Source of the DNA: a virus
Taxonomy: Duplodnaviria; Caudoviricetes
Direction: 5' to 3' (one strand)
IMG/VR virus record: IMGVR_UViG_3300028025_001269
Location: 1-56,719 of that record
DNA length: 56,719 nt
In this document: positions 22,358 through 56,430 of the stretch, in pieces
How positions within the stretch are numbered: position 1 is the first letter of the stretch
Layout of the letters: each line of letters starts with the position of its first letter
The notes under the pieces: model-generated
Seen by the model: only the letters and a program-made list of their open reading frames with translations
What the model was told of the DNA's origin: nothing
The model's database searches: none
Made by a program: the position numbers and the translations under genes

Positions 22358-22431
22358 GCCCCTTTAGTTAAATGGTATAACACTTGATTTGTAATCATGG
22401 ATTGGCAGTTCGATTCTGTCAAGGGGCACCA
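22358..22431 (+). tRNA. tRNA-Thr(UGU)
   Basis: Acceptor stem GCCCCTT/AAGGGGC; D arm GTTA/TAAC; anticodon loop TT-TGT-AA (one mismatch in the stem); T arm GGCAG-TTCGATT-CTGTC; encoded CCA. Confidence 0.9.
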
Positions 22432-39069: not shown

Positions 39070-41049
39070 TTATCGTCTGTCGAATGTTGCGTATTCTAAA
39101 GTTGCAGCATCAAGTGAAAATGCAGGATCAGTACTCTCTGAAACAAACTGAAGTGACACAGTAAAACCAGATCCTACAACTTGTGTTTGAAATAGTTTCT
39201 TTAACTTAGTTCCGTACCTAGCAGATCCGTATGTAGCTGTTGGTGATCCATAAAAACCTACAGCACCTGTGTCGTTTGATAATGTTATGGTATCTGGTTG
39301 TATCACACCTTCATCATCAAAGTCAAGCTTTAAGTTAGCAGATGTGGTAACACTACCCAATGGATCTGTATACAAGAACAACTTATAGAATGTCTTGCGT
39401 AGTCTAGGATCCGTCATAGGCACAAATGGAGTAGAGAATGTAGCTATAATATTAGCCCCATCAAAGCTACTTCCAGATTCCATCTTATATACATAGCCAT
39501 CTGTCTGAGCAAATACTATAGTCTCAAGTCTTGAGAAGTAATCACTGTCTGCTACAAACGCTCTAATGCCACGCATCTCAGCCCAAGAGATTTCACCTGT
39601 CTCATTACCGATGATCTGTGTACCTAAAATACCAACAGCATTCTGTGTAGTTACAGCAGAACTAAATCCAAATAAACGATACTGGGACTTCTCTCGAATA
39701 ACAACACTGCAGAATGAGGTAGAAGAAGCAATGAAGCTAGTCATCTCACTCTGGATAGGCTTTGATACTACTGCTAAACTAAAGTCACCGAACTTATCCG
39801 TACCAGTCAAAAGTCTCAGACCGTCAGGACCTAAGAACATAATGTCAGATCCAATTTCTTGGATGGTATCAGTGTCAATACACCCGATGTTTAATGTGAT
39901 TGGCTGTAATACAAAGTCAGCTAAACTGTTACCAGTTAAACGTGAGATTCTCTGTTGACTAAAGATAATCAATTGCTCACGGAATACAATCATACCAGTG
40001 ACGGCACTGCCTACACTTAATACACCTGCACCATTAGCAGGATTAAAATCATTGTCTGTATAAGGAGAAGTAAAAGTTACCGTATCTCCTTTAGCGTAGA
40101 ACATCTGGTTCTTAAACCAGCAAATATGTTCTGCAGCTTGTACGTCACTTGGTGCAGAGTTTAATGCAGTGAAAGTAGTATTGTCATAAATGAATGGGGC
40201 ATTGACACTGTCAACACCTGCAATCTTTTCTGTAGTACCAATACGATACTTCTCAAATCTATTCTTTGAACTACCTGATCTGTTAGCAGTCAGGAAAGTA
40301 ATAGCTGCATTATCTGCAGGACTAGATGCTAGATTTGGATTAATACTTAAAGTAGCACCACCTGAAGTTACTGTTGCATCTGCTAGTACTGTGTATACTA
40401 AATTCACACCAGCTATGGTAAATGTGTCACCTTCTTGTGGAGCAGAGGTAAGACCATCTACAGTTAAACTAGCACCCGTCTGTGAACCACCATTAACAAG
40501 TACAGTGCCGTAGCTAGGTATGTTAATCTGACTCCAACCAAAGCTAGAGCTTTTAAATACAGAGTTATTCCGTACTGCAAGAACTCTACTACGCCATGCA
40601 GCTACGCCAATAATTGTTCCTGTATTGCTTGTTACCGTAATGACAGCAGCATTAGCTGGGCTGGATGCAAGGCTAGTGGTTAGTGTTAATGTAGCACGTT
40701 TGTAAGTAGAGTTGTATGCAACACCACCTGCTGCTATAGTATATGTTCCTGCTACACCTGCAATAGTAAAGACAGTTCCCTCTGCAGGTGAGGTATATAG
40801 ATTTGCTACTATTAAAGTTGTTCCTGTTTGACCACTACCATGAACTCGGATACTGGCGTAGGAGGGAACAGCAGCAGTGTCGTACTTTTCAAAGCCTTCA
40901 ATTCTACGATAGCCACCCTCAATGGAGGGTTCAAAGTTACGTAGTACCCTAGCACTGCCCGGTAAAGATATACCATGCTGTAGTGGGGACAAGTTTGTTA
41001 CTAGACCACCCCTAAACTCAAACGGGTACGTCTGCCATTTATCTGCCAT
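39070..41049 (-). CDS. Tail nozzle / tubular protein B-like beta-propeller
   Basis: F.GGL, NFEP...GGYRRI.G and IGC...DTIQE motifs; follows the adaptor gene. Confidence 0.7.
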   Translation of the reverse strand: MADKWQTYPFEFRGGLVTNLSPLQHGISLPGSARVLRNFEPSIEGGYRRIEGFEKYDTAAVPSYASIRVHGSGQTGTTLIVANLYTSPAEGTVFTIAGVAGTYTIAAGGVAYNSTYKRATLTLTTSLASSPANAAVITVTSNTGTIIGVAAWRSRVLAVRNNSVFKSSSFGWSQINIPSYGTVLVNGGSQTGASLTVDGLTSAPQEGDTFTIAGVNLVYTVLADATVTSGGATLSINPNLASSPADNAAITFLTANRSGSSKNRFEKYRIGTTEKIAGVDSVNAPFIYDNTTFTALNSAPSDVQAAEHICWFKNQMFYAKGDTVTFTSPYTDNDFNPANGAGVLSVGSAVTGMIVFREQLIIFSQQRISRLTGNSLADFVLQPITLNIGCIDTDTIQEIGSDIMFLGPDGLRLLTGTDKFGDFSLAVVSKPIQSEMTSFIASSTSFCSVVIREKSQYRLFGFSSAVTTQNAVGILGTQIIGNETGEISWAEMRGIRAFVADSDYFSRLETIVFAQTDGYVYKMESGSSFDGANIIATFSTPFVPMTDPRLRKTFYKLFLYTDPLGSVTTSANLKLDFDDEGVIQPDTITLSNDTGAVGFYGSPTATYGSARYGTKLKKLFQTQVVGSGFTVSLQFVSESTDPAFSLDAATLEYATFDRR

Positions 41050-41771
41050 TAGGAAACCCTAGAGCCAGCAATAGTACGTTTGTTATTTGCTAGTGCAGTT
41101 CCTCTTACATAGTCATACCTATTGATCAGTATGATACGCATATGCTTAATGCCCTCGTCAAACTTAGCTTTAGCAATAGCTGCTGCTTGTTCGTTACTAC
41201 GGAACATATAAGCATAGTACATAGCACCTTCGTCAATGATGTGACGATACATCTCAGGAATGATAGGTGTATCTGTAGCATTCTCTAGAGGAGTAGTACT
41301 AGCGTAGTATTCGTACACTAAAGTAAAAGCTTCTTTAGGTGAAGGCACAACCCCGAATTCACGATCAGGAGTTTGAAATACATATTGGGGGATGTTACGA
41401 ACACTAGTGTCAGATGTATACTCTTGATCAGCAAACTTCTCTAAGTACTCTTCATAAGAGATAATACGAAGTTTAACTGTGTCATTATTAAATGTAGAAT
41501 TCTTCTTAATGCGGAAAGTATCGAAGTCAATAGTTTTCGCATTAGCAGGATAAGCATAGCGAGTAGTACCCGCAGTGAGTGTAGTTTCCTGTGTAACATG
41601 ATTCCAGTGCCATTGAAACTGCAACTGGTTGATATCTTGTATTGCTGAGTTTACTGCATCTTTAGCATGCGAGTAGAATCCTTTAGCACTAGCAAAGTTA
41701 GCACTTGTCAACTCTACTTCATTAAGACGTTTGTTAACGTCATTAACTAAACCTAAGAAGTTATAAGCCAC
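41049..41771 (-). CDS. Head-tail adaptor / tail tubular protein A-like
   Basis: FL.LVN.V..RLNE, W.W, P.P and P.IPE motifs; position. Confidence 0.7.
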   Translation of the reverse strand: MAYNFLGLVNDVNKRLNEVELTSANFASAKGFYSHAKDAVNSAIQDINQLQFQWHWNHVTQETTLTAGTTRYAYPANAKTIDFDTFRIKKNSTFNNDTVKLRIISYEEYLEKFADQEYTSDTSVRNIPQYVFQTPDREFGVVPSPKEAFTLVYEYYASTTPLENATDTPIIPEMYRHIIDEGAMYYAYMFRSNEQAAAIAKAKFDEGIKHMRIILINRYDYVRGTALANNKRTIAGSRVS

Positions 41772-42262: not shown

Positions 42263-43333
42263 TTAAGCTGCGTTGTAACGGGCAACAACAATACCTTCTG
42301 GACGAAGAATCTTGCGACCATACAAGTGCATACCACGTACAATGTCAGCAAAGCTGTCAGGATCACGATAGCTCTCGGTCTTGGTGATTTGCTGAGCAGA
42401 AGCAACAGCAGAATCGTGACCAGCAACAACTACACCAAAGTTGGTGGACTGAGCAGAAGCACCAGAAGTGCCAGCACCAGTACCTACTTTAGGCAGATTG
42501 CTAGAAACGAATACACGGAAACCATGGAGGTTGTTGAGGATCAAACCGTTTTGCAAGCCAGAACCACCGAAGTCACCGTTCAAAAGTCGGCTGTCTTCGT
42601 CTTTGAGAATCTCAACGAATACTGGATCGACAACTAACCAACGACCTTGTGTGTCAACTTGTTGCTGATCTAACAGACGAGCCATACGAGCGATAACTTG
42701 CAATGGGGATACGACTGTTGATGGCAGGGCTGTTGCACCGGGCAGACGAGCAGCTAAAGGAATTGAATCGCCAGTAGAACCAGCGGTTGTCAATTGACCA
42801 AAGCTTGGACGGCTCAACTTCATCGAAGCTAACAACTCATCGCTGCCAGCAGAAGTTACAGCTTTAGTACCGGGGAATGTGGTACGAACTGTATTTGGAT
42901 CACCATGCTTAGCGGACTGTTGGAAGCCTGAGAGATAACCTAAAACGTCTTGGTCATACTGGTCACGCAAGCGATAAGCTGCACGATCAGAAGCCATGCT
43001 CATGAAGTTAACGTGGCTGTGTGCTGCTTCGATATCGTCAATCTTGAATGCGAAGTAGTTAGCTTGGTCAACAACGAGTGTGAAGTCTTCGTCATTCAGA
43101 TCTTGTGCAGTGATTTGTGTACCACGAGCATACGACTGAACCGAAACTTCTGGCTCTTTGATGATCTTTACAGAGTCACCCATGTTAGCGATTTCACCGA
43201 AGTAATCGCTGTTAGTGATAGCTTCTACAGTTGAAGCTTTACGGAATGCAAGTTGTACTTGCTTGGAATAGATTACTGGGCTAAAATTACCATTAGGTAA
43301 ATTGCCGTAACCAGCTGCGGATGGGAATGCCAT
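42263..43333 (-). CDS. Major capsid protein (HK97 fold)
   Basis: F.P.IYS, GEI...GD.VKI, F.IDDIE, GRWLVV.P and D.VRG..LYG.K.LRPE motifs; strong RBS. Confidence 0.92.
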   Translation of the reverse strand: MAFPSAAGYGNLPNGNFSPVIYSKQVQLAFRKASTVEAITNSDYFGEIANMGDSVKIIKEPEVSVQSYARGTQITAQDLNDEDFTLVVDQANYFAFKIDDIEAAHSHVNFMSMASDRAAYRLRDQYDQDVLGYLSGFQQSAKHGDPNTVRTTFPGTKAVTSAGSDELLASMKLSRPSFGQLTTAGSTGDSIPLAARLPGATALPSTVVSPLQVIARMARLLDQQQVDTQGRWLVVDPVFVEILKDEDSRLLNGDFGGSGLQNGLILNNLHGFRVFVSSNLPKVGTGAGTSGASAQSTNFGVVVAGHDSAVASAQQITKTESYRDPDSFADIVRGMHLYGRKILRPEGIVVARYNAA

Positions 43334-43600
43334 TTTGTATTTCTCCTAAATTGAATGGAAGTTACTACTACGCTTAACTCAGTAGCAGAGCCTCTTCGAT
43401 TAGGTGCGTATAGCTTAGACTTCTAGATTATCTAAGATATACGGGCTAACTCTGTAGGGTAGTCTGGTGCCGTATTGTCTTTGCGTTTACTTAGTACTAC
43501 ATGGTTTTTGTCTATGGTAGATGGTTGGCTTAGCTAAAGCGGCATCTTAAGACGGATTAAGAAGGGTAAGTAAGCCGAAGCTTACCTATCCCTTTGTACT
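43334..43600 (-). promoter_or_regulatory. Long structured 5' leader of the capsid gene
   Basis: C(UUCG)G hairpin at about 43562-43594 and two hairpins with CC/CA(A)C internal loops. Confidence 0.65.
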
Positions 43601-43602
43601 AC

Positions 43603-43631
43603 AGTTATAAACTTATTTCTACGTTTGTCAA
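43603..43631 (-). promoter_or_regulatory. Capsid gene promoter
   Basis: TTGACA-N16-TATAACT on the minus strand. Confidence 0.7.
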
Positions 43632-43634
43632 GCT

Positions 43635-44507
43635 TTATCGTGCTGAACCTGATTTATCGTAGATAAACTTACCAGATTGAATAGCAGCAATAATTGCCTC
43701 TTGGTTACGCTCATAGTCAATAGAACTCATGCGCTCTACTTCTGACTCACGGAAAGTACCCTGTTCAGACGAGGCATCAAAGCCCGTTTTACGGGAAGAA
43801 CCTACGGCTGAAGCTGCTGCCTTGTCATCCGACTTACGGGTACGCTTAGAGGTAGTAATACCCTTATCTGCCTTATACAAATCAATAGCACGAGCAGCAG
43901 ATATTGCATCATTCTCATTCTCATACAGGGCACTTTGGACCCACTTAGGCTGTGCTTCTACCCAGTCATGGAACTCATCTTGCTCACGGATCTGATCAAA
44001 GTCAGGGTGTAAGCGGAGTAAGTCTGCCTCAGCCTTTTCCTTGGCAGTCTGTGCTTCACGCTGATCTAAAGCTTTGAATCGCTCCTCCAGTACAGCACTT
44101 TGTTCCTTTGCCTTCTTGAGGGCTATGGTTTCAACAATCTTAGCTACCTCGGGGAACTCCCGTGACCACTGCTCTAGCTCCTCTTCAGACTTTGGCAGTT
44201 TAATCTGCTGACTAGCTGTCTGTTCTAGGGAAGCCTTTAAATCATCAATTTGTTTCTGCATCTCAACTTGTTGCTTTTGAGTATGCCTACGTAGATCACC
44301 ATAACGCTTCTTAAAGCTTTTCTCTTCTGCACTTAACCCTTCATCACTACCATTGTCCTCATCTTCAGGATCTTTAGGGGGTGCTGAGTTTTTTTCAGTC
44401 AGCGTCTTAAGTTCTTCTTCTTCTTGTTTAATTCTGGCTTCGTTTGCATTACGTGTTGCAAAACCAGCCACGACTTTTTTAGGTACTTCTACTTGTGTGA
44501 GTTCCAT
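43635..44507 (-). CDS. Capsid scaffolding protein
   Basis: Acidic coiled coil; FKKRYGDLRRH and HPDF...F.DW motifs; directly upstream of the MCP. Confidence 0.8.
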   Translation of the reverse strand: MELTQVEVPKKVVAGFATRNANEARIKQEEEELKTLTEKNSAPPKDPEDEDNGSDEGLSAEEKSFKKRYGDLRRHTQKQQVEMQKQIDDLKASLEQTASQQIKLPKSEEELEQWSREFPEVAKIVETIALKKAKEQSAVLEERFKALDQREAQTAKEKAEADLLRLHPDFDQIREQDEFHDWVEAQPKWVQSALYENENDAISAARAIDLYKADKGITTSKRTRKSDDKAAASAVGSSRKTGFDASSEQGTFRESEVERMSSIDYERNQEAIIAAIQSGKFIYDKSGSAR

Positions 44508-44525
44508 CTTTTCCTCTTTTGTTGG

Positions 44526-44566
44526 GGCTAACAGTTGCCAGTGTTTAACTGGGGTATTAGGTAGCC
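44526..44566 (-). promoter_or_regulatory. Structured leader hairpin of the scaffold gene
   Basis: GGC-TACC-TAATA-CC-CCAG..CTGG-CAAC-TGTTA-GCC. Confidence 0.6.
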
Positions 44567-44584
44567 ATGAATAAGGGGGTAATG

Positions 44585-45823
44585 TTAAGACTTCTTACCT
44601 GCCAGCCCCTTTCTGGTAGTTACTTTCTTTTCTACGTCTGGCTTACGTTTTGCCAGTAATGGTTGTTTGCTGTATTTTACCATGTTTGTACTGATTAGTC
44701 CACCCTCAGCTGCACCAATAGTTTCTACGGGTTCATAGCCGGAGGGGATAGGCTGTTGTGGTTTATCATCTTTGAAAGAGATTAAAGTACTTTGCCCCTC
44801 TGGGTTAGCATACTTACGAAGTTCAAACTTATCTGGCTGTACTTGAGTCAAGTTTAAACTGGTATCCGCTTCACCTTCAATTGTCTGATCCCCAAAACTT
44901 TTTCCCCGTCTACGGAAGGTTAAGAATCCCATTGGATCGCCTTCAGAAGTATTGCCACCATAAATGCTATTTAGAATACTGCCGCCAATAGCTTCTGTGA
45001 CTAGCTTCTTGCCTGTCTTTTCTATTATATTATCTCTAATAGGAGGAGGTGTATATATCTCTCCGGGTTGATAAGAGCCAGCAATGTTCTGTGCTACTGC
45101 CTTTTCTCCAATGCCTTGATTCGTCAAAGTAGAAATGTCTTGGGCTACGAAAGGATCCATACCCTCTTGAGTTAATACCTTTGCCATGTACTCATCACTA
45201 ACTCCACCGGGCTGTGCACGTAAGCTTTCTGCCTGTGCAGCAGCAAAGTCTGCATCTGCCTGAATAGAGGGGGGTGTGGCTTGCCCATAGCCCAATTCAC
45301 TGCGGACAGTGTTATACCCCTGATTTACGCCATACCCAACACCGCCCATGACACCACCAACAACACTGCCCTTTAAGACGGCTTCACCAATATCGTCTCC
45401 TCGAACAGCAGCTGTAGCACCAGAACTTCCACCACCCAAAACTGCACCCGTAGTAACTGCCCCAGTTATACCACCACCTGCCCACTCGTTAATGCCGGGT
45501 GCAAACTGAGAACCTGCATATGCAACACCAAAGGATAAAGCAATATCTTCGAGCTTTCCACCTTTAATAGCAGTGTTAGCTGCTGCAATATAGGGAAGTA
45601 AATAATACTGTTGAGTAGCAATAGCAGCAATAGTAGCAACACTACCAACAGGGTCTTTAGCCATAGGCTGAATTACATTCTTATCAATGGCTTCTCCTAC
45701 GTCTCCAATAGCAGGACCGGGGTCAATTTCAGCTAGTTGCTCACCTGCTGCTTCTGTCCAGTTGTCTGCTTTATCAATTGCATCATCAACAAAGCCAATA
45801 CCTGTTGGTCCACCACCACACAT
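44585..45823 (-). CDS. Gly/Ala-rich probable internal virion (pilot-like) protein
   Basis: MCGGG N-terminus, glycine-zipper hydrophobic segments and C-terminal AAEGG...KGL. Confidence 0.55.
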   Translation of the reverse strand: MCGGGPTGIGFVDDAIDKADNWTEAAGEQLAEIDPGPAIGDVGEAIDKNVIQPMAKDPVGSVATIAAIATQQYYLLPYIAAANTAIKGGKLEDIALSFGVAYAGSQFAPGINEWAGGGITGAVTTGAVLGGGSSGATAAVRGDDIGEAVLKGSVVGGVMGGVGYGVNQGYNTVRSELGYGQATPPSIQADADFAAAQAESLRAQPGGVSDEYMAKVLTQEGMDPFVAQDISTLTNQGIGEKAVAQNIAGSYQPGEIYTPPPIRDNIIEKTGKKLVTEAIGGSILNSIYGGNTSEGDPMGFLTFRRRGKSFGDQTIEGEADTSLNLTQVQPDKFELRKYANPEGQSTLISFKDDKPQQPIPSGYEPVETIGAAEGGLISTNMVKYSKQPLLAKRKPDVEKKVTTRKGLAGKKS

Positions 45824-48501: not shown

Positions 48502-50616
48502 TTACTGTGGCATTCCGGGTGGAGGGGCAGCTGGAGGTGTACCCTGTGGTGTTATGTTACCACTAAAGCCTTGCTCTCCGGGTACTGGTGCTGCACCCAC
48601 TCCGATATTGCCACCGCCACCACCTGTCATATCCTGAACACCGGGTACTCCGGGAACTCCACCTGCTGGTGCTGGAGGTGCAGGAGGTTGATTCTGTTGC
48701 AATAGAACCATCTGACGTGTAGCCTCATCTATATTGTTGGTTACCTTGTCTGGATCTAAATCCATTGACTTAGCAATCTCACGAATAATGTACGGGAACT
48801 TAGCGTAAGGAGCAAGAGCAGGATTACTTGCTACTTGCAAGAATTGCATTAGACGTTGACTGCGTACTTCATTTGCCATGAGGCTTTCTGTACCACGGGC
48901 TTTAACTTCTAAGTCACCCTTGATTTCTGCATCAAAGTCAAACTGCATATTAAAGCTAAAGAATGCCTCACCTAGTGGACGTAACAAGTAGTCATCTAAG
49001 TTCTTGATAACAGTCTTAACGCTACCAGAAGCAGCATTCATCAGCATGCTAATACCACTAGCAGTACGACCTACGCCTGATACGCCAGTCTGTCCATGCG
49101 AGAACGAAGGTAAGCCTGTAGACTCATCAGCTAAAATACGAGCTTTATCAAATAGCTGCAGGTTCTCATTGGATACGTTAGGGAACTTGGTACCGAAGAT
49201 AGCTTGACCGGGAGCACCACCCTGTCTACGGAATACTTTACCGGGATAGACTGACAGATCTTGACCGGGAGTCAAGTTAGTCTCATCGACCTCGAATACA
49301 AGGTTGCCAGATAGGACGGCATTATCTACCGCCATACGCATAAACCCGTTCATTAAAGTTTGTGTATCGTCCATGTTTTCTGCGATACCGATGCCAAATA
49401 GCGAGTATGGGTTTAATTCGTAGGGGACAGCGTAATACGGAATCCTAGCTGGCTTGAAAGGATTTAATACCATGCGGAGAATACGACCATTACAGTACCA
49501 GATGTTGGCTTGTAATTCATCGGCATTCTCTAACTCTTTAGGAATCGTAACTTCGTTTTGTTCTAACAGTTCACGCTCAACTGCACCCCAGAACTCAAGG
49601 ACCTCAAAGCGATCAATGCCTTGGTCAGTACGATAATCCATCAAGTCATCTTCCCAATACTTCTTGGTATACGACTCACCCTGTGCTACTACATCATCAA
49701 TAACTGTCTTGCGGAAGAAGGGACGCTTCTTGAGAGCACGAATCTGAGTACGGCTCATCTTGTGACGCTCGATTACATACTGTGCTTCATCCATGTTAAT
49801 TGCATCGGGATCAGCATAGAAGTTCCATACGCTAACATGAGATGTAGAAGGTACTGTCTTAATCAAGGGGCTGTACTCACCCTCGTTTGACCAGTTAGGA
49901 TATTCTTTATCAATAGCAAAAGGACCCTTCATGATACCTGTACCAAAAAGTGCCATCTCAAATGCTGTTGATCTTAGCTGCTTACTTGCATTCGATTCAT
50001 CTAGCTGATCATGGATCTTCTTCTCCATCTTCTTAGCAGCTACCATCGCTGGGCTAAAGGTAGCAGATCCGGGTGTTACACCGGGACCTTCATTTAGATT
50101 CTGAATACCAGAGAGTTCATCGGCTAGAGGACCTAGACGTTCTTGGAGTGTTGCAAAGGTAGCACCGGGAGGTAAGTCATTACCGTCACCTTTGTAACCA
50201 TAGGGAGAAAAATCAGGAATAGCTTCCTGTAACTTAGCTTCATTTGGATCAAAGCTAACATCTGCTGCTACGCCATCGGGTAATACGGTTGGGTCTACGC
50301 TGATAGGGAAACTGTTGTTTGAAAACAATACATCAACGATCTGACCATAAGCGGCTAGAGTCTTAGTCTTAGTAACTTTGATAAAGACACGGCTCTTCTC
50401 CGTTTCAGTGAACTGAACGTCAGGACCATAGATACCCCGATAGTTGCGATAGGCACGGAGCCATCTCTCTTCATCTATCCTGCGGGTTGTCTCTGCCTTG
50501 GTGTACTTTTCCATAAGCAACTGGACAATAGGACCAGTTACTTTATCTTCTGCATTGATGTTATCGACATCCCCTAAATTAATAGAGTCTGTTTCAATAA
50601 AATTTTTATCTATCAT
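48502..50616 (-). CDS. Portal protein
   Basis: 704 aa; W...Y.NYRG.Y, GTG..K, G.G..E and RTASG.SM motifs; Pro/Gln-rich tail; follows TerL. Confidence 0.9.
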   Translation of the reverse strand: MIDKNFIETDSINLGDVDNINAEDKVTGPIVQLLMEKYTKAETTRRIDEERWLRAYRNYRGIYGPDVQFTETEKSRVFIKVTKTKTLAAYGQIVDVLFSNNSFPISVDPTVLPDGVAADVSFDPNEAKLQEAIPDFSPYGYKGDGNDLPPGATFATLQERLGPLADELSGIQNLNEGPGVTPGSATFSPAMVAAKKMEKKIHDQLDESNASKQLRSTAFEMALFGTGIMKGPFAIDKEYPNWSNEGEYSPLIKTVPSTSHVSVWNFYADPDAINMDEAQYVIERHKMSRTQIRALKKRPFFRKTVIDDVVAQGESYTKKYWEDDLMDYRTDQGIDRFEVLEFWGAVERELLEQNEVTIPKELENADELQANIWYCNGRILRMVLNPFKPARIPYYAVPYELNPYSLFGIGIAENMDDTQTLMNGFMRMAVDNAVLSGNLVFEVDETNLTPGQDLSVYPGKVFRRQGGAPGQAIFGTKFPNVSNENLQLFDKARILADESTGLPSFSHGQTGVSGVGRTASGISMLMNAASGSVKTVIKNLDDYLLRPLGEAFFSFNMQFDFDAEIKGDLEVKARGTESLMANEVRSQRLMQFLQVASNPALAPYAKFPYIIREIAKSMDLDPDKVTNNIDEATRQMVLLQQNQPPAPPAPAGGVPGVPGVQDMTGGGGGNIGVGAAPVPGEQGFSGNITPQGTPPAAPPPGMPQ

Positions 50617-50625
50617 TCGTTACCT

Positions 50626-52221
50626 TTAGTATCCGAAAACATTGTCTGCAATTGCAGGACCACTACGTTGGCTCAGAGGATTATAATCGAATAGACTACT
50701 TCTAGGTCTACTCATTACTCCATATCGCAAAGAATCATATAAGTGATCCTCTGACTTGGTATCTATATCCTCTGGGTTATTTTTATCCAAAGGCAAGATG
50801 GGCAATTGTGCAATCAGGTTTGTGCAGTTACTAGTTATAACAAGTCTTGGCTCTTCTGTAAAGGGGTCAACCTGTAATCGTCTATGTATTTCATTCTTTC
50901 CTGCAATACGGCTACCTGCACTTCTATCTGCTGGTCTCCATCTGCAGCCAGATTGAATCATCTGCTCTGCTAATGAAGGACCTGTGTCTCCCCGCTTGTG
51001 CCAACATGAACTATCCAGTACACCGTAGCGAATAGTACCGTCATTCTTCTCTGCTTCTAGTACCATACCCGCTAAATCCTTGGCTAATACCTTACTTACG
51101 TACAGTTCACGGTACACAATTAGCTGTTCACTGGGGCTAACTGCGAACCAAACAACAGCAGAATAAGACCCATATCCGTAGTCACAAGCCCTGAATCTAG
51201 CCCAATCTCGGGGTATTTCAATAGGGTCAATGACGTGAATCTGCCTGTTAAACTCTGAAAATGCAGCACCTTCTGCTACATCCCAGTTACCTTCTAGCAA
51301 TTGCTTGCGTTGATGCTCGGGTAATGACAGCAACATGGTCTCATAGTCACCTTGTTGTGCCAAATAAGGGTTATCTATCAGCATAGCTGGGATAAACCTA
51401 CGCTTAAACAGGGGTTGTCCTGCCTTACTGTGCCCTGCAGGATACTCCAACCGCTTACCTGTCTCTACATCCGTAGCCCAATAGGACTTTCCCGGGGGTG
51501 ATGGGTCAATAAACATCTTTTTAACCCATGCATGACCCGGTCCACCGGGGTTAGTTGTAGCTCTCATGTAGATTGGCAGGTCTGGTGCTGTACTACGCAG
51601 ACGAGAACGCATGTAATTCCACGCAAATGGGGTAGACCACTGCGTTAACTCGTCAAAACCCACCCAACTAAAGGCTAAACCCTGATACCTGAGTACATCT
51701 TCGTCTCTATCGAGGTAAGAGAACCACAATCTAGCACCACTAGGGGCTACCCACTGCATCTTTCGCTCTGACCACTTGATACCCGGGTAGATCTTCGGGT
51801 ACATTTCCTGTGATTTCCAGATTAACTCTCTAAGTTCCTCAGTAGTATGACGCAAAAGAAGACCGCTAAAGGAAGGATGACCCATATATCTGAGAGGGTC
51901 AGCAAGCATGGCATAAGATTTACCTCCTCCGGCTGCTCCACCGTACAATACTTCCCGTTCTGGTGCTGCTAAGAAGTATGTCTGGGGTCCAGCATTGGGT
52001 TTAAAGATAATATTCTGTCCCTCAATGTTAGGAACATGCATCTCTTCATCGTCAATCTGTGATTCCGTGTTCGAGGTCAACATCTGCGATGATGTCTTTG
52101 GCTCGTTTGATTCCTTTGTTGCCAATTCTTTTTTCGTACTTCTCCGCTTCTTCAATGGCTTTTTTGTATTTGGTAGCCCAGCTTCGGAGAGTAGAAGCTT
52201 TTGTCTTGTTTCGCTGCTCAT
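50626..52221 (-). CDS. terL: Terminase large subunit (true start uncertain: 52221, 52083 or 52041)
   Basis: Walker A YGGAAGGGKS; Walker B GFDE; ATTNPGG; nuclease motifs DYG and DH.YD..RY. Confidence 0.93.
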   Translation of the reverse strand: MSSETRQKLLLSEAGLPNTKKPLKKRRSTKKELATKESNEPKTSSQMLTSNTESQIDDEEMHVPNIEGQNIIFKPNAGPQTYFLAAPEREVLYGGAAGGGKSYAMLADPLRYMGHPSFSGLLLRHTTEELRELIWKSQEMYPKIYPGIKWSERKMQWVAPSGARLWFSYLDRDEDVLRYQGLAFSWVGFDELTQWSTPFAWNYMRSRLRSTAPDLPIYMRATTNPGGPGHAWVKKMFIDPSPPGKSYWATDVETGKRLEYPAGHSKAGQPLFKRRFIPAMLIDNPYLAQQGDYETMLLSLPEHQRKQLLEGNWDVAEGAAFSEFNRQIHVIDPIEIPRDWARFRACDYGYGSYSAVVWFAVSPSEQLIVYRELYVSKVLAKDLAGMVLEAEKNDGTIRYGVLDSSCWHKRGDTGPSLAEQMIQSGCRWRPADRSAGSRIAGKNEIHRRLQVDPFTEEPRLVITSNCTNLIAQLPILPLDKNNPEDIDTKSEDHLYDSLRYGVMSRPRSSLFDYNPLSQRSGPAIADNVFGY

Positions 52222-56073: not shown

Positions 56074-56189
56074 TCTTTATTATTGTTCTTGTTTGACTGC
56101 ACCCTCGTCTTAGAAGACTCGGACTTTCAGTAGGATACAGATTTGTATCTCATTGTATACAAAACTTAGTACAAGTGTCTATCTTACGA

Positions 56190-56430
56190 TACAGTTAAAT
56201 GTAGTTCAAAGGTTACTCACTTAACTGTAACACTCTAAGTGTCTTTTAGTTTAACTATCTTTTACATTTAACTGTATTTACACTTAACTATGTTTTTATA
56301 GTTTAACTATATACAGTTAACTGTATCACTTTAAGTGAGTCTGTTAGACGTAGTTTTGCATTAATCTAAATACTTGTCAAGTACTATTTTTAATTGTGTA
56401 GTTAAACTGCCACACTCTTAACTACCACTC
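56190..56430. repeat. AT-rich non-coding region with repeated TTAACT(G/A) motifs
   Basis: About 9 copies of TTAACT/AGTTAA in both orientations. Confidence 0.7.
56352..56380 (-). promoter_or_regulatory. Candidate promoter of the late arm
   Basis: TTGACA-N16-CAAAACT on the minus strand. Confidence 0.55.

Follow-up and report, generated by a model that had tools for sequence, protein, structure and literature searches.

What is written into the leaders of two neighbouring phage shell genes? The question is raised by IMG/VR record IMGVR_UViG_3300028025_001269, the whole of which (56,719 bases, estimated to be 97% complete) was analysed and is called the window below, and in which a scaffold-like open reading frame (ORF) and the major capsid gene follow one another on the minus strand. 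A sequence-only reading of this DNA had picked out three hairpins with different stems and the same CC/CA(A)C internal loop, one in the leader of the scaffold-like ORF (the scaffold leader) and two in the capsid leader, and had proposed that they form a cis-regulatory RNA system that sets the ratio of scaffold to capsid through one RNA-binding protein. We find here two cis-acting leader RNAs, homologous in design, each with a rod whose helices are joined by one repeated asymmetric internal loop. This common loop has a G followed by CC on one strand and (N)AC followed by C on the other, with that G paired to the last C (G-CC opposite (N)AC-C below), and it is present in both leaders, up to three times in one. 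The capsid leader runs, in order, through a promoter, a 5' hairpin, one loop-bearing hairpin and a domain of about 120 nucleotides (nt) with two more loops; coordinates are collected in Table 1.

Read directly on the minus strand, the three hairpins are in the sequence exactly as that reading wrote them. A descriptor derived from them (outer stem of at least 4, CC, inner stem of at least 4, CAC or CAAC) gave four matches on the two strands of the window, three of which are the hairpins themselves, while 200 dinucleotide shuffles of the window gave a mean of 2.4, with four or more matches in 40/200. A stricter version, with stem lengths summing to at least 9, gave three matches against a shuffle mean of 1.5, and three or more were found in 40/200 shuffles. 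The number of hairpins in the window was rejected as evidence, being within shuffle expectation, and that all three cluster within 378 nt of leader was noticed post hoc, the descriptor having been derived from the same hairpins. The fourth match (56216..56171, minus strand), whose 4+4 stems are weak and rich in G-U and which falls within an array of AGTTAA-type repeats, was treated as chance, as was a match to a double-loop descriptor at 51178-51276 on the plus strand, which has minimal 3/3/3 stems and is at shuffle level (mean 0.84).

Since the count in the window is not significant, conservation in relatives is the real test. Two IMG/VR scans, with the capsid proteins of the window and of Puniceispirillum phage HMO-2011 as queries, confirmed at least 599 and at least 598 stretches, respectively; the best 80 loci were kept from each, seven named phage records were added, and removal of near-duplicates left 102 non-redundant freshwater and marine loci. 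Across these loci the strict descriptor matched 72 times in 36.6 kilobases (kb) of capsid leaders (1.97 per kb), 48 times in 502 kb of other sense-strand sequence (0.096 per kb), nine of these 48 being the scaffold-leader hairpin, and 13 times in 539 kb of antisense sequence (0.024 per kb). The earlier proposal that the stems change while the pairing and the loop stay was borne out across about 100 relatives, with many compensatory changes, and the loop letters, G-CC opposite (N)AC-C, proved nearly invariant in the homologous leaders. Covariance models were built from the leaders of the relatives, and these models, R1 for the capsid leader and R2 for the scaffold leader, find both leaders widely.

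For the 3' domain of the capsid leader, RNAalifold, run independently of the covariance models on a plain MAFFT alignment of 48 freshwater sequences, predicted exactly hairpin 3: its outer stem of five pairs, CC, its inner stem of three pairs, then CAC, with compensatory changes at 8/8 pairs. The outer stem is paired in 95% and the inner stem in 91.7%, against 26-39% in slid controls. Inspection by subclade shows that hairpin 3 continues into a rod via helices A and B, with helix B being CUG(AA)/(UU)CAG or CCAA/UUGG in other subclades and the loop N-UAC or CAAC opposite CC. The extra CAGAG/CUCUG closure that had been drawn around hairpin 3 is absent from the closest relatives; what is conserved there is CAGA/UCUG plus CCU/AGG, both of which the window's subclade retains. 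The long-range loop of this rod is the hairpin loop turned round, and the element GACUACC of the sequence-only reading is therefore its long strand. The G(G/A)CUACC feature, which had been said to precede two of the hairpins, is thus not a separate element; it supplies the long strand for another such loop in reversed orientation.

Model R1 was built on 46 freshwater sequences with the rod structure, and it gave one match per locus in 92/100 sources, namely the window, 44/44 freshwater and 47/55 marine sources, the last including HMO-2011, CRP-1, CRP-13 and Sinorhizobium phage phiM6. In the subset of matches whose coordinates were compared, the match lies directly upstream of the capsid start. 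In the resulting alignment of 92 sequences, which leans towards the model because it was fitted to it, 90.2% of cells are paired and 21/22 pairs show compensatory changes; none of 500 shuffles scored as high, and slid controls gave 25-39%. The loop letters of hairpin 3 are CC at both positions in 92/92 sequences and C, A and C in 83, 92 and 92 of 92. Those of the long-range loop are A in 71/92 and C in 92/92, with the opposite C-C in 91/92 and 83/92. The closing pairs are G-C or C-G in 90/92 sequences for hairpin 3 and in 84/92 for the long-range loop, with U-G in a further eight.

We would like to note that other pairings can be drawn within this domain. A local CAG/CUG hairpin pairs about equally on the MAFFT alignment, but the window's subclade cannot form it, and it was rejected; an AAACU/AGUUU helix, which also pairs about equally well on that alignment, was likewise not adopted. 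The 3' domain is read here as a nested rod, to which a switch or a pseudoknot may be an alternative. The tip of hairpin 3 is constant within a clade and differs between clades, being a GGCA/GGCG tetraloop in many freshwater sequences, an NGGCCA hexaloop in many marine ones and a CUAGA-containing loop in the window's clade. Several of the apical loops are palindromic, yet at the rate expected for 4-mers, and kissing between them was rejected. The domain ends about 20 nt before the capsid AGGAG, and we found no conserved helix that sequesters the capsid Shine-Dalgarno sequence: the stretch from P1 to that sequence differs between subclades and holds no hairpin in the window, and pairing with CACCU or GCCUCU was rejected since no covariation was seen by eye. 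A leader peptide was rejected as well, the short AUG-to-stop frames of the window's leader being unconserved.

The 5' part of the capsid leader opens, after the stop codon of the scaffold-like ORF, with a promoter that is the sole instance of TTGACA-N16-18-TATAAY in the window (chance expectation, 0.11) and that has a similar counterpart ahead of the capsid leader in 99/102 non-redundant relatives. A simple promoter scan misses it because the scan requires T as the last -10 letter; housekeeping promoters of Alphaproteobacteria often have C at the end of the -10 element. The capsid gene thus has its own predicted promoter, which is conserved and of a strong, host-type kind. The 5' hairpin, which begins a few nt past the predicted transcript start, has a counterpart of different sequence at the same place in relatives and may serve as a stabiliser. 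In hairpin 2 the outer stem, CC, the inner stem and CAC/CAAC are kept in relatives while the stem sequences vary, and an element of this type is found within the first 110 nt of 47/99 leaders vs 3.3 in shuffles. In the marine clade it is often the first hairpin past the promoter, and its long strand is CUAC, UUAC or AAUAC.

Several additional features were found in the capsid leaders of relatives. In 59 relatives 217-364 nt separate the scaffold-like gene from the capsid gene. In the other 17 of the 76 the distance is 696-836 nt, and there an HNH endonuclease ORF lies inside the capsid leader (for example, L012:2338-2964), with the promoter and its 5' hairpin on one side and the 3' domain on the other; the corresponding ORF in locus L001 (MW202701) is annotated as an HNH endonuclease. 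Within the HNH coding sequence of L012 is a stretch nearly identical to the hairpin-2 element of L010, a relative without the insertion, and the ORF runs through the entire 3' domain, with its stop in the hairpin past P1. In inserted loci the outer stem has changed from CUG/CAG to UUG/CAA, with pairing and amino acids both kept. Between the scaffold-like stop and the capsid promoter, ARAGORN detected a tRNA-Met gene in one relative (L042:489-564), and a direct repeat of about 20 nt (GTAAGTACTTCACGCACGTTA-like) is present in two or three copies at L051, L061 and L064, loci of one subclade.

In the scaffold leader, the 80 nt ahead of the scaffold-like start are conserved from freshwater to marine loci. 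RNAalifold, run on a MAFFT alignment of 56 sequences, predicted a helix A (N-UGG/CCA-N'), a CUAC/CC loop and a helix B, and the conserved words GGCUAC and GCCCCA are this helix A together with its loop strands. The whole forms a rod of about 45 nt with two loops of the same kind in opposite orientation. Model R2 gave one match each in 85/100 sources (64.9 bits in the window), and in the alignment of these 85 sequences 81.9% of cells are paired and 11/13 pairs show compensatory changes, against 15-51% in slid controls, with register shifts lowering the quality of the inner helices. By the strict descriptor, the outer loop is present in 74 of the 85 scaffold leaders, the inner loop in 68 and both in 60, and the long strand is CUAC in 43/60 and CAAC in 13/60. 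Of five complete genomes, four have exactly one match each to R1 and to R2, and HTVC115P has none. Just ahead of the scaffold rod, a further helix (GGGG 44609..44606 with CCCC 44579..44576; 44575..44609, minus strand) spans the stop codon of the upstream 412-amino-acid (aa) ORF; its counterparts in relatives are GGUGGG/CCCACC and GACGGG/CCCGUC, with a loop of about 25 nt, and by eye it looks covarying.

The leader structures are features of the RNA and not of the DNA: G-U pairs are frequent in the R1 alignment (for example, 23/92 and 17/92 at two pairs), and all matches to R1 and R2 are on the sense strand. Structure, conservation, strand and positions are what the data show. Nineteen sequencing runs, 16 of them recorded as RNA, each hold a small share of the stretch, and the contigs of four lake or freshwater metatranscriptome libraries were compared with it, with depth left out of account. 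Contigs that bridge the capsid start and the 3' domain were found in two libraries, X1 (43284-43439) and X5 (43196-43385 and 43359-43478). Another X1 contig (43457-43591) has adapter-like loose ends on both sides and is therefore read as a short insert. Upstream it stops on the second G of the 5' hairpin stem, 13 nt past the -10 element, and this could be a 5' end or a random break. As contigs are blind to transcript starts, strand and level, and the libraries may include DNA, no transcript start is claimed.

Comparison with Rfam 15 placed the leaders in no family. At the gathering threshold the whole window gave only a tRNA gene (22358-22428), the region 43250-44700 gave four matches at E of at most 10, all far below the gathering scores, and 20 related loci gave no match. 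In a simple scan of the sense strand, neither leader had a terminator-like site within it or shortly behind it, and no promoter was detected ahead of the scaffold leader.

Table 1. Positions in the window of the leader elements and the genes around them
Feature	Position	Strand	Sequence or evidence
Large terminase	50626-52221	minus	
SU10-type portal	48502-50616	minus	
Scaffold-leader rod	44523..44567	minus	UGG-CUAC-CUAAUA-CC-CCAGU-UAAAC-ACUGG-CAAC-UGUUAG-CC-CCA; double-loop descriptor match
Scaffold-leader hairpin	44560..44528	minus	CUAAUA-CC-CCAGU-loop-ACUGG-CAAC-UGUUAG
Scaffold-like ORF, Shine-Dalgarno	44516..44512	minus	GAGGA; rod end 6 nt upstream
Scaffold-like ORF, 290 aa	43635..44507	minus	Start codon 44507..44505
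Capsid promoter	43604..43631	minus	-35 TTGACA 43631..43626, 16-nt spacer, -10 TATAAC 43609..43604
Capsid-leader 5' hairpin	43564..43592	minus	13-bp stem, UUCG loop; in the minimum-free-energy fold
Hairpin 2	43519..43547	minus	AGAUG-CC-GCUU-UAGCU-AAGC-CAAC-CAUCU; direct reading, descriptor and fold
Hairpin 2 extension	43554..43551 with 43512..43509	minus	GUCU with AGAC
Capsid-leader 3' domain	43367..43488	minus	Covariance model R1 match, 70.5 bits
P1	43486..43483 with 43373..43370	minus	ACGC with GCGU
Helix A	43466..43463 with 43389..43386	minus	CAGA with UCUG
Long-range internal loop	43462..43459 opposite 43390	minus	CUAC opposite C
Helix B	43458..43456 with 43393..43391	minus	CCU with AGG; hairpin 3 next
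Hairpin 3	43400..43449	minus	UUAG-CC (43445..43444)-CGUAUA...UAUACG-CAC (43406..43404)-CUAA
Capsid Shine-Dalgarno and start codon	43347..43343; 43333..43331	minus	AGGAG; UAGGAG kept in relatives
Major capsid gene, 356 aa	42263..43333	minus	PHROG 267 major head protein, E 9.4e-64; Pfam PF25209
SU10-type adaptor	41049-41771	minus	

The sequence-only reading had likened the repeated loop to C-loops, and the leader loops do match the published sequence description of that motif. In the sections available of two papers (PMC2952876, PMC9516175), a C-loop is an internal loop that is asymmetric and whose long strand usually has C first and holds two cytosines that are multi-paired and have an exposed adenine between them; an extra nucleotide is seen in one rRNA example, and C-loops are described as RNA-protein binding sites that are present in thrS mRNA and BC RNAs and act there in translational control. 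The leader loops, which have covarying helices on both sides and sizes of 2x3 (CC/CAC), 2x4 (CC/CAAC and CUAC/CC) and 1x4 (CUAC/C), are likewise asymmetric internal loops in a hairpin or rod. Their long strand CAC has two cytosines around an unpaired adenine, and CAAC and CUAC correspond to the variant with one extra nucleotide. They differ from C-loops in that the closing G-C pair and CC are nearly invariant and in that each leader has two to three copies of the loop, with both orientations represented. In three dimensions a C-loop is defined by base triples and non-Watson-Crick pairs that its cytosines make with the pairs on either side, and these raise the helical twist; the leader loops are C-loop-like by their sequence.

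Two known systems help to place these leaders. In the E. coli thrS mRNA, the leader has a C-loop-containing hairpin beside the ribosome-binding site, and a protein that binds it controls initiation. Similar to the thrS operator, for which the available text links the C-loop with translational control (PMC9516175), a structured leader element here adjoins the ribosome-binding site; in contrast to it, the leaders have no thrS sequence or Rfam similarity and no evident tRNA-like loop, and one module occurs in two different mRNAs. The second system, phage P22, was invoked in the earlier interpretation on account of its scaffold autoregulation, and its capsid protein is of broadly the same kind, the HMO-2011 record noting a P22-coat-like protein. 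The P22 scaffolding gene was reportedly found in 1985 to be autoregulated post-transcriptionally, and we know of no RNA target for this control. However, the portal-scaffold gap of P22 is 13 nt and its scaffold and coat genes overlap, so P22 has no comparable leader RNA and was rejected as a homologous case. The idea of post-transcriptional tuning is shared with P22, and the analogy is weaker than had been implied. What stands of the original interpretation is the set of conserved, covarying and strand-specific leader structures with a common loop.

The leaders are probably a common control point for making both main shell proteins. The explanation that we favour, at a probability of roughly 45%, is that the loops are a shared protein-binding translational operator for both shell genes; this reading is based on covariation together with invariant loops, recurrence in two leaders, proximity to the Shine-Dalgarno sequences and the precedent of C-loops. 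One trans-acting protein, encoded by phage or host, would recognise the loops and, bound near the ribosome-binding sites, would jointly tune how the two most abundant shell proteins are translated. It would work like the thrS operator, where the leader-bound protein competes with or assists the 30S subunit. The protein itself, the sign of its effect and any tie to the state of assembly are what we infer here, and a bolder form of the same idea is offered tentatively, the odds being against it: the double-loop rod may be the operator for a single RNA-binding regulator that couples the translation of shell proteins to the assembly state of the capsid. Candidates for such a regulator include the free scaffold-like protein or the capsid protein itself.

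Several observations weigh against an operator. P22 is the one phage for which scaffold autoregulation is reported, and leaders of this kind are missing from it. The strict descriptor gives no match in 49/102 capsid leaders, mostly because of variant loop letters or a stem mismatch, and 25/85 scaffold leaders miss the full two-loop pattern; minimal, one-loop scaffold leaders occur in CRP-2, CRP-13 and HTVC115P (Pelagibacter phage HTVC115P by eye). When single sequences are folded the signal is weak: the capsid leader has a z-score of -2.06, the scaffold leader one of +0.71. The short strand of the leader loops is CC, or one C in the window's long-range loop, where the example from potato spindle tuber viroid (PSTVd; PMC9516175) has one nucleotide, and strand lengths vary among the rRNA examples in the part of the literature available (PMC2952876). 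Finally, a strong promoter followed by a 5' hairpin also fits a protein-free design for high expression.

That last point belongs to the main competitor of the shared operator, a module that works without protein, in which the 5' hairpin and rods would block 5'-end-dependent decay or provide a ribosome stand-by site or enhancer, the loops being kept for tertiary folding. The capsid gene does hold the only consensus-type promoter of the window, with a hairpin right past the predicted transcript start in the window and in relatives, no conserved helix sequesters the Shine-Dalgarno sequence, and both genes are generally known to encode the most abundant proteins of virion assembly. Nevertheless, such elements rarely need near-invariant loop letters five times over two mRNAs, and the scaffold rod, ahead of which no promoter was found and which is therefore not a 5'-end cap, is apparently internal to a longer transcript. 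We consider this explanation rather unlikely.

We regard as improbable a device at the level of transcription, in which the nascent RNA would act on the polymerase, as in the put-like antitermination of phage HK022, or in which an attenuator would control the late operon. The capsid leader is directly behind a promoter and amid a 33-kb run of structural genes on the same strand, and a helix crosses the stop codon just ahead of the scaffold leader. The put element of HK022 consists of two stem-loops just downstream of a promoter, where the capsid leader also lies; no promoter was found ahead of the scaffold leader in the simple scan. The scaffold rod, at 6 nt from the Shine-Dalgarno sequence, is better suited to translation, the leaders show neither a sense-strand terminator-like site in the simple scan nor similarity to an Rfam family, and both points argue against such a device.

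More improbable still is a ligand-sensing riboswitch or a ribozyme, for which the 3' domain of the capsid leader would be the aptamer or catalytic core. This domain has several helices closed by the long-range P1, with conserved junction letters, and in many relatives the 3' strand of P1 can, by eye, pair into a small downstream hairpin; that hairpin, however, is absent from the window's subclade. There is no conserved expression platform, with the stretch between P1 and the Shine-Dalgarno sequence unconserved and the leaders showing no sense-strand terminator-like site in the simple scan, and no match to an Rfam riboswitch or ribozyme was found. Moreover, the same loop occurs in the simple 45-nt scaffold hairpin, which is too small for a typical aptamer. 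A last reading, that the structures are hairpins arisen by chance, sites at the DNA level or remnants of a decayed HNH endonuclease gene, we disfavour as very improbable. It would agree with a hairpin count within chance in the window and with the HNH ORF, holding a near-identical hairpin-2 copy, in 17/76 capsid leaders. It is at odds with what freshwater and marine clades alike show, namely compensatory changes, G-U pairs, specificity for one strand and loops that stay invariant, and with an outer-stem change in the HNH ORF (CUG/CAG to UUG/CAA) that preserves both pairing and amino acids.

The phage to which these leaders belong is, by its capsid identities to HMO-2011 (72% to the coat protein) and to the capsids of Roseobacter CRP phages (57-74%), judged to be a nearly complete freshwater podophage of the HMO-2011 type. 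Its genes form two convergent arms, the minus-strand arm extending from about 56.1 kb down to 22.9 kb, and the capsid leader is at mid-position within the 33-kb run of minus-strand structural genes. Several unnamed ORFs lie between the portal gene and the 290-aa ORF in this arm. The protein of the 290-aa ORF has a sole match, to PHROG 13678, of function unknown, and it matched no Pfam family; its "scaffold" label is therefore a suggestion from its place ahead of the capsid gene and its composition. At the junction of the two arms is the tRNA gene mentioned above (plus strand; Rfam, 65 bits). Upstream of the first minus-strand ORF, at 56180-56400 (minus strand), is a promoter-like site with TTGACA near 56390, followed by about seven copies of a repeat of the (A/T)AGTTAA(A/C/G)T type; these copies, at the head of the structural arm, may serve as operators or iteron-like sites.

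In the literature on HMO-2011 intergenic regions and on structured RNA upstream of major capsid genes we found no description of these leaders, and the available sections of one paper from that literature (PMC6918029) are silent on them. A catalogue from 2023 (PMC10690425), as far as its available text goes, mined IMG/VR intergenic regions for covariation and lists 8,495 candidates, unnamed and 29-151 nt long, of which five typically stand upstream of a major capsid protein family. Parts of the present leaders may already be among these candidates. In its available text, leaders of the HMO-2011 type are not named, nor is a loop motif that they share or a link between scaffold and capsid. As observations, the shared loop, the rod with two loops and the connection of scaffold with capsid appear to be new.

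What the leaders mean for the biology of these phages follows from their distribution and their design. Freshwater relatives are numerous, and each of the two IMG/VR searches gave at least about 600 related contigs. Phages of the HMO-2011 type infect dominant marine bacteria of the SAR116 group and the Roseobacter RCA lineage. Cultured phage-host pairs exist for HMO-2011 and the CRP phages, so the leaders can be put to experiment in them. The balance of scaffold and capsid is said to have stood as an open question since post-transcriptional control of the P22 scaffold was reported, and a structured RNA absent from Rfam gives a handle on this balance in tailed phages that can be mutated. With helices that vary freely around a strict G-CC / AC-C core in both orientations, the leader loops offer clean natural data from which to learn the sequence rules of C-loop-like motifs and to look for their binding partner. 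If the double-loop rod does couple the translation of shell proteins to assembly, it would give assembly-linked control of morphogenetic genes its first defined RNA target in a tailed phage, the rod's tandem C-loop modules in both orientations would be a natural recognition code, and assembly-linked control would be at work in one of the most abundant groups of aquatic phages.

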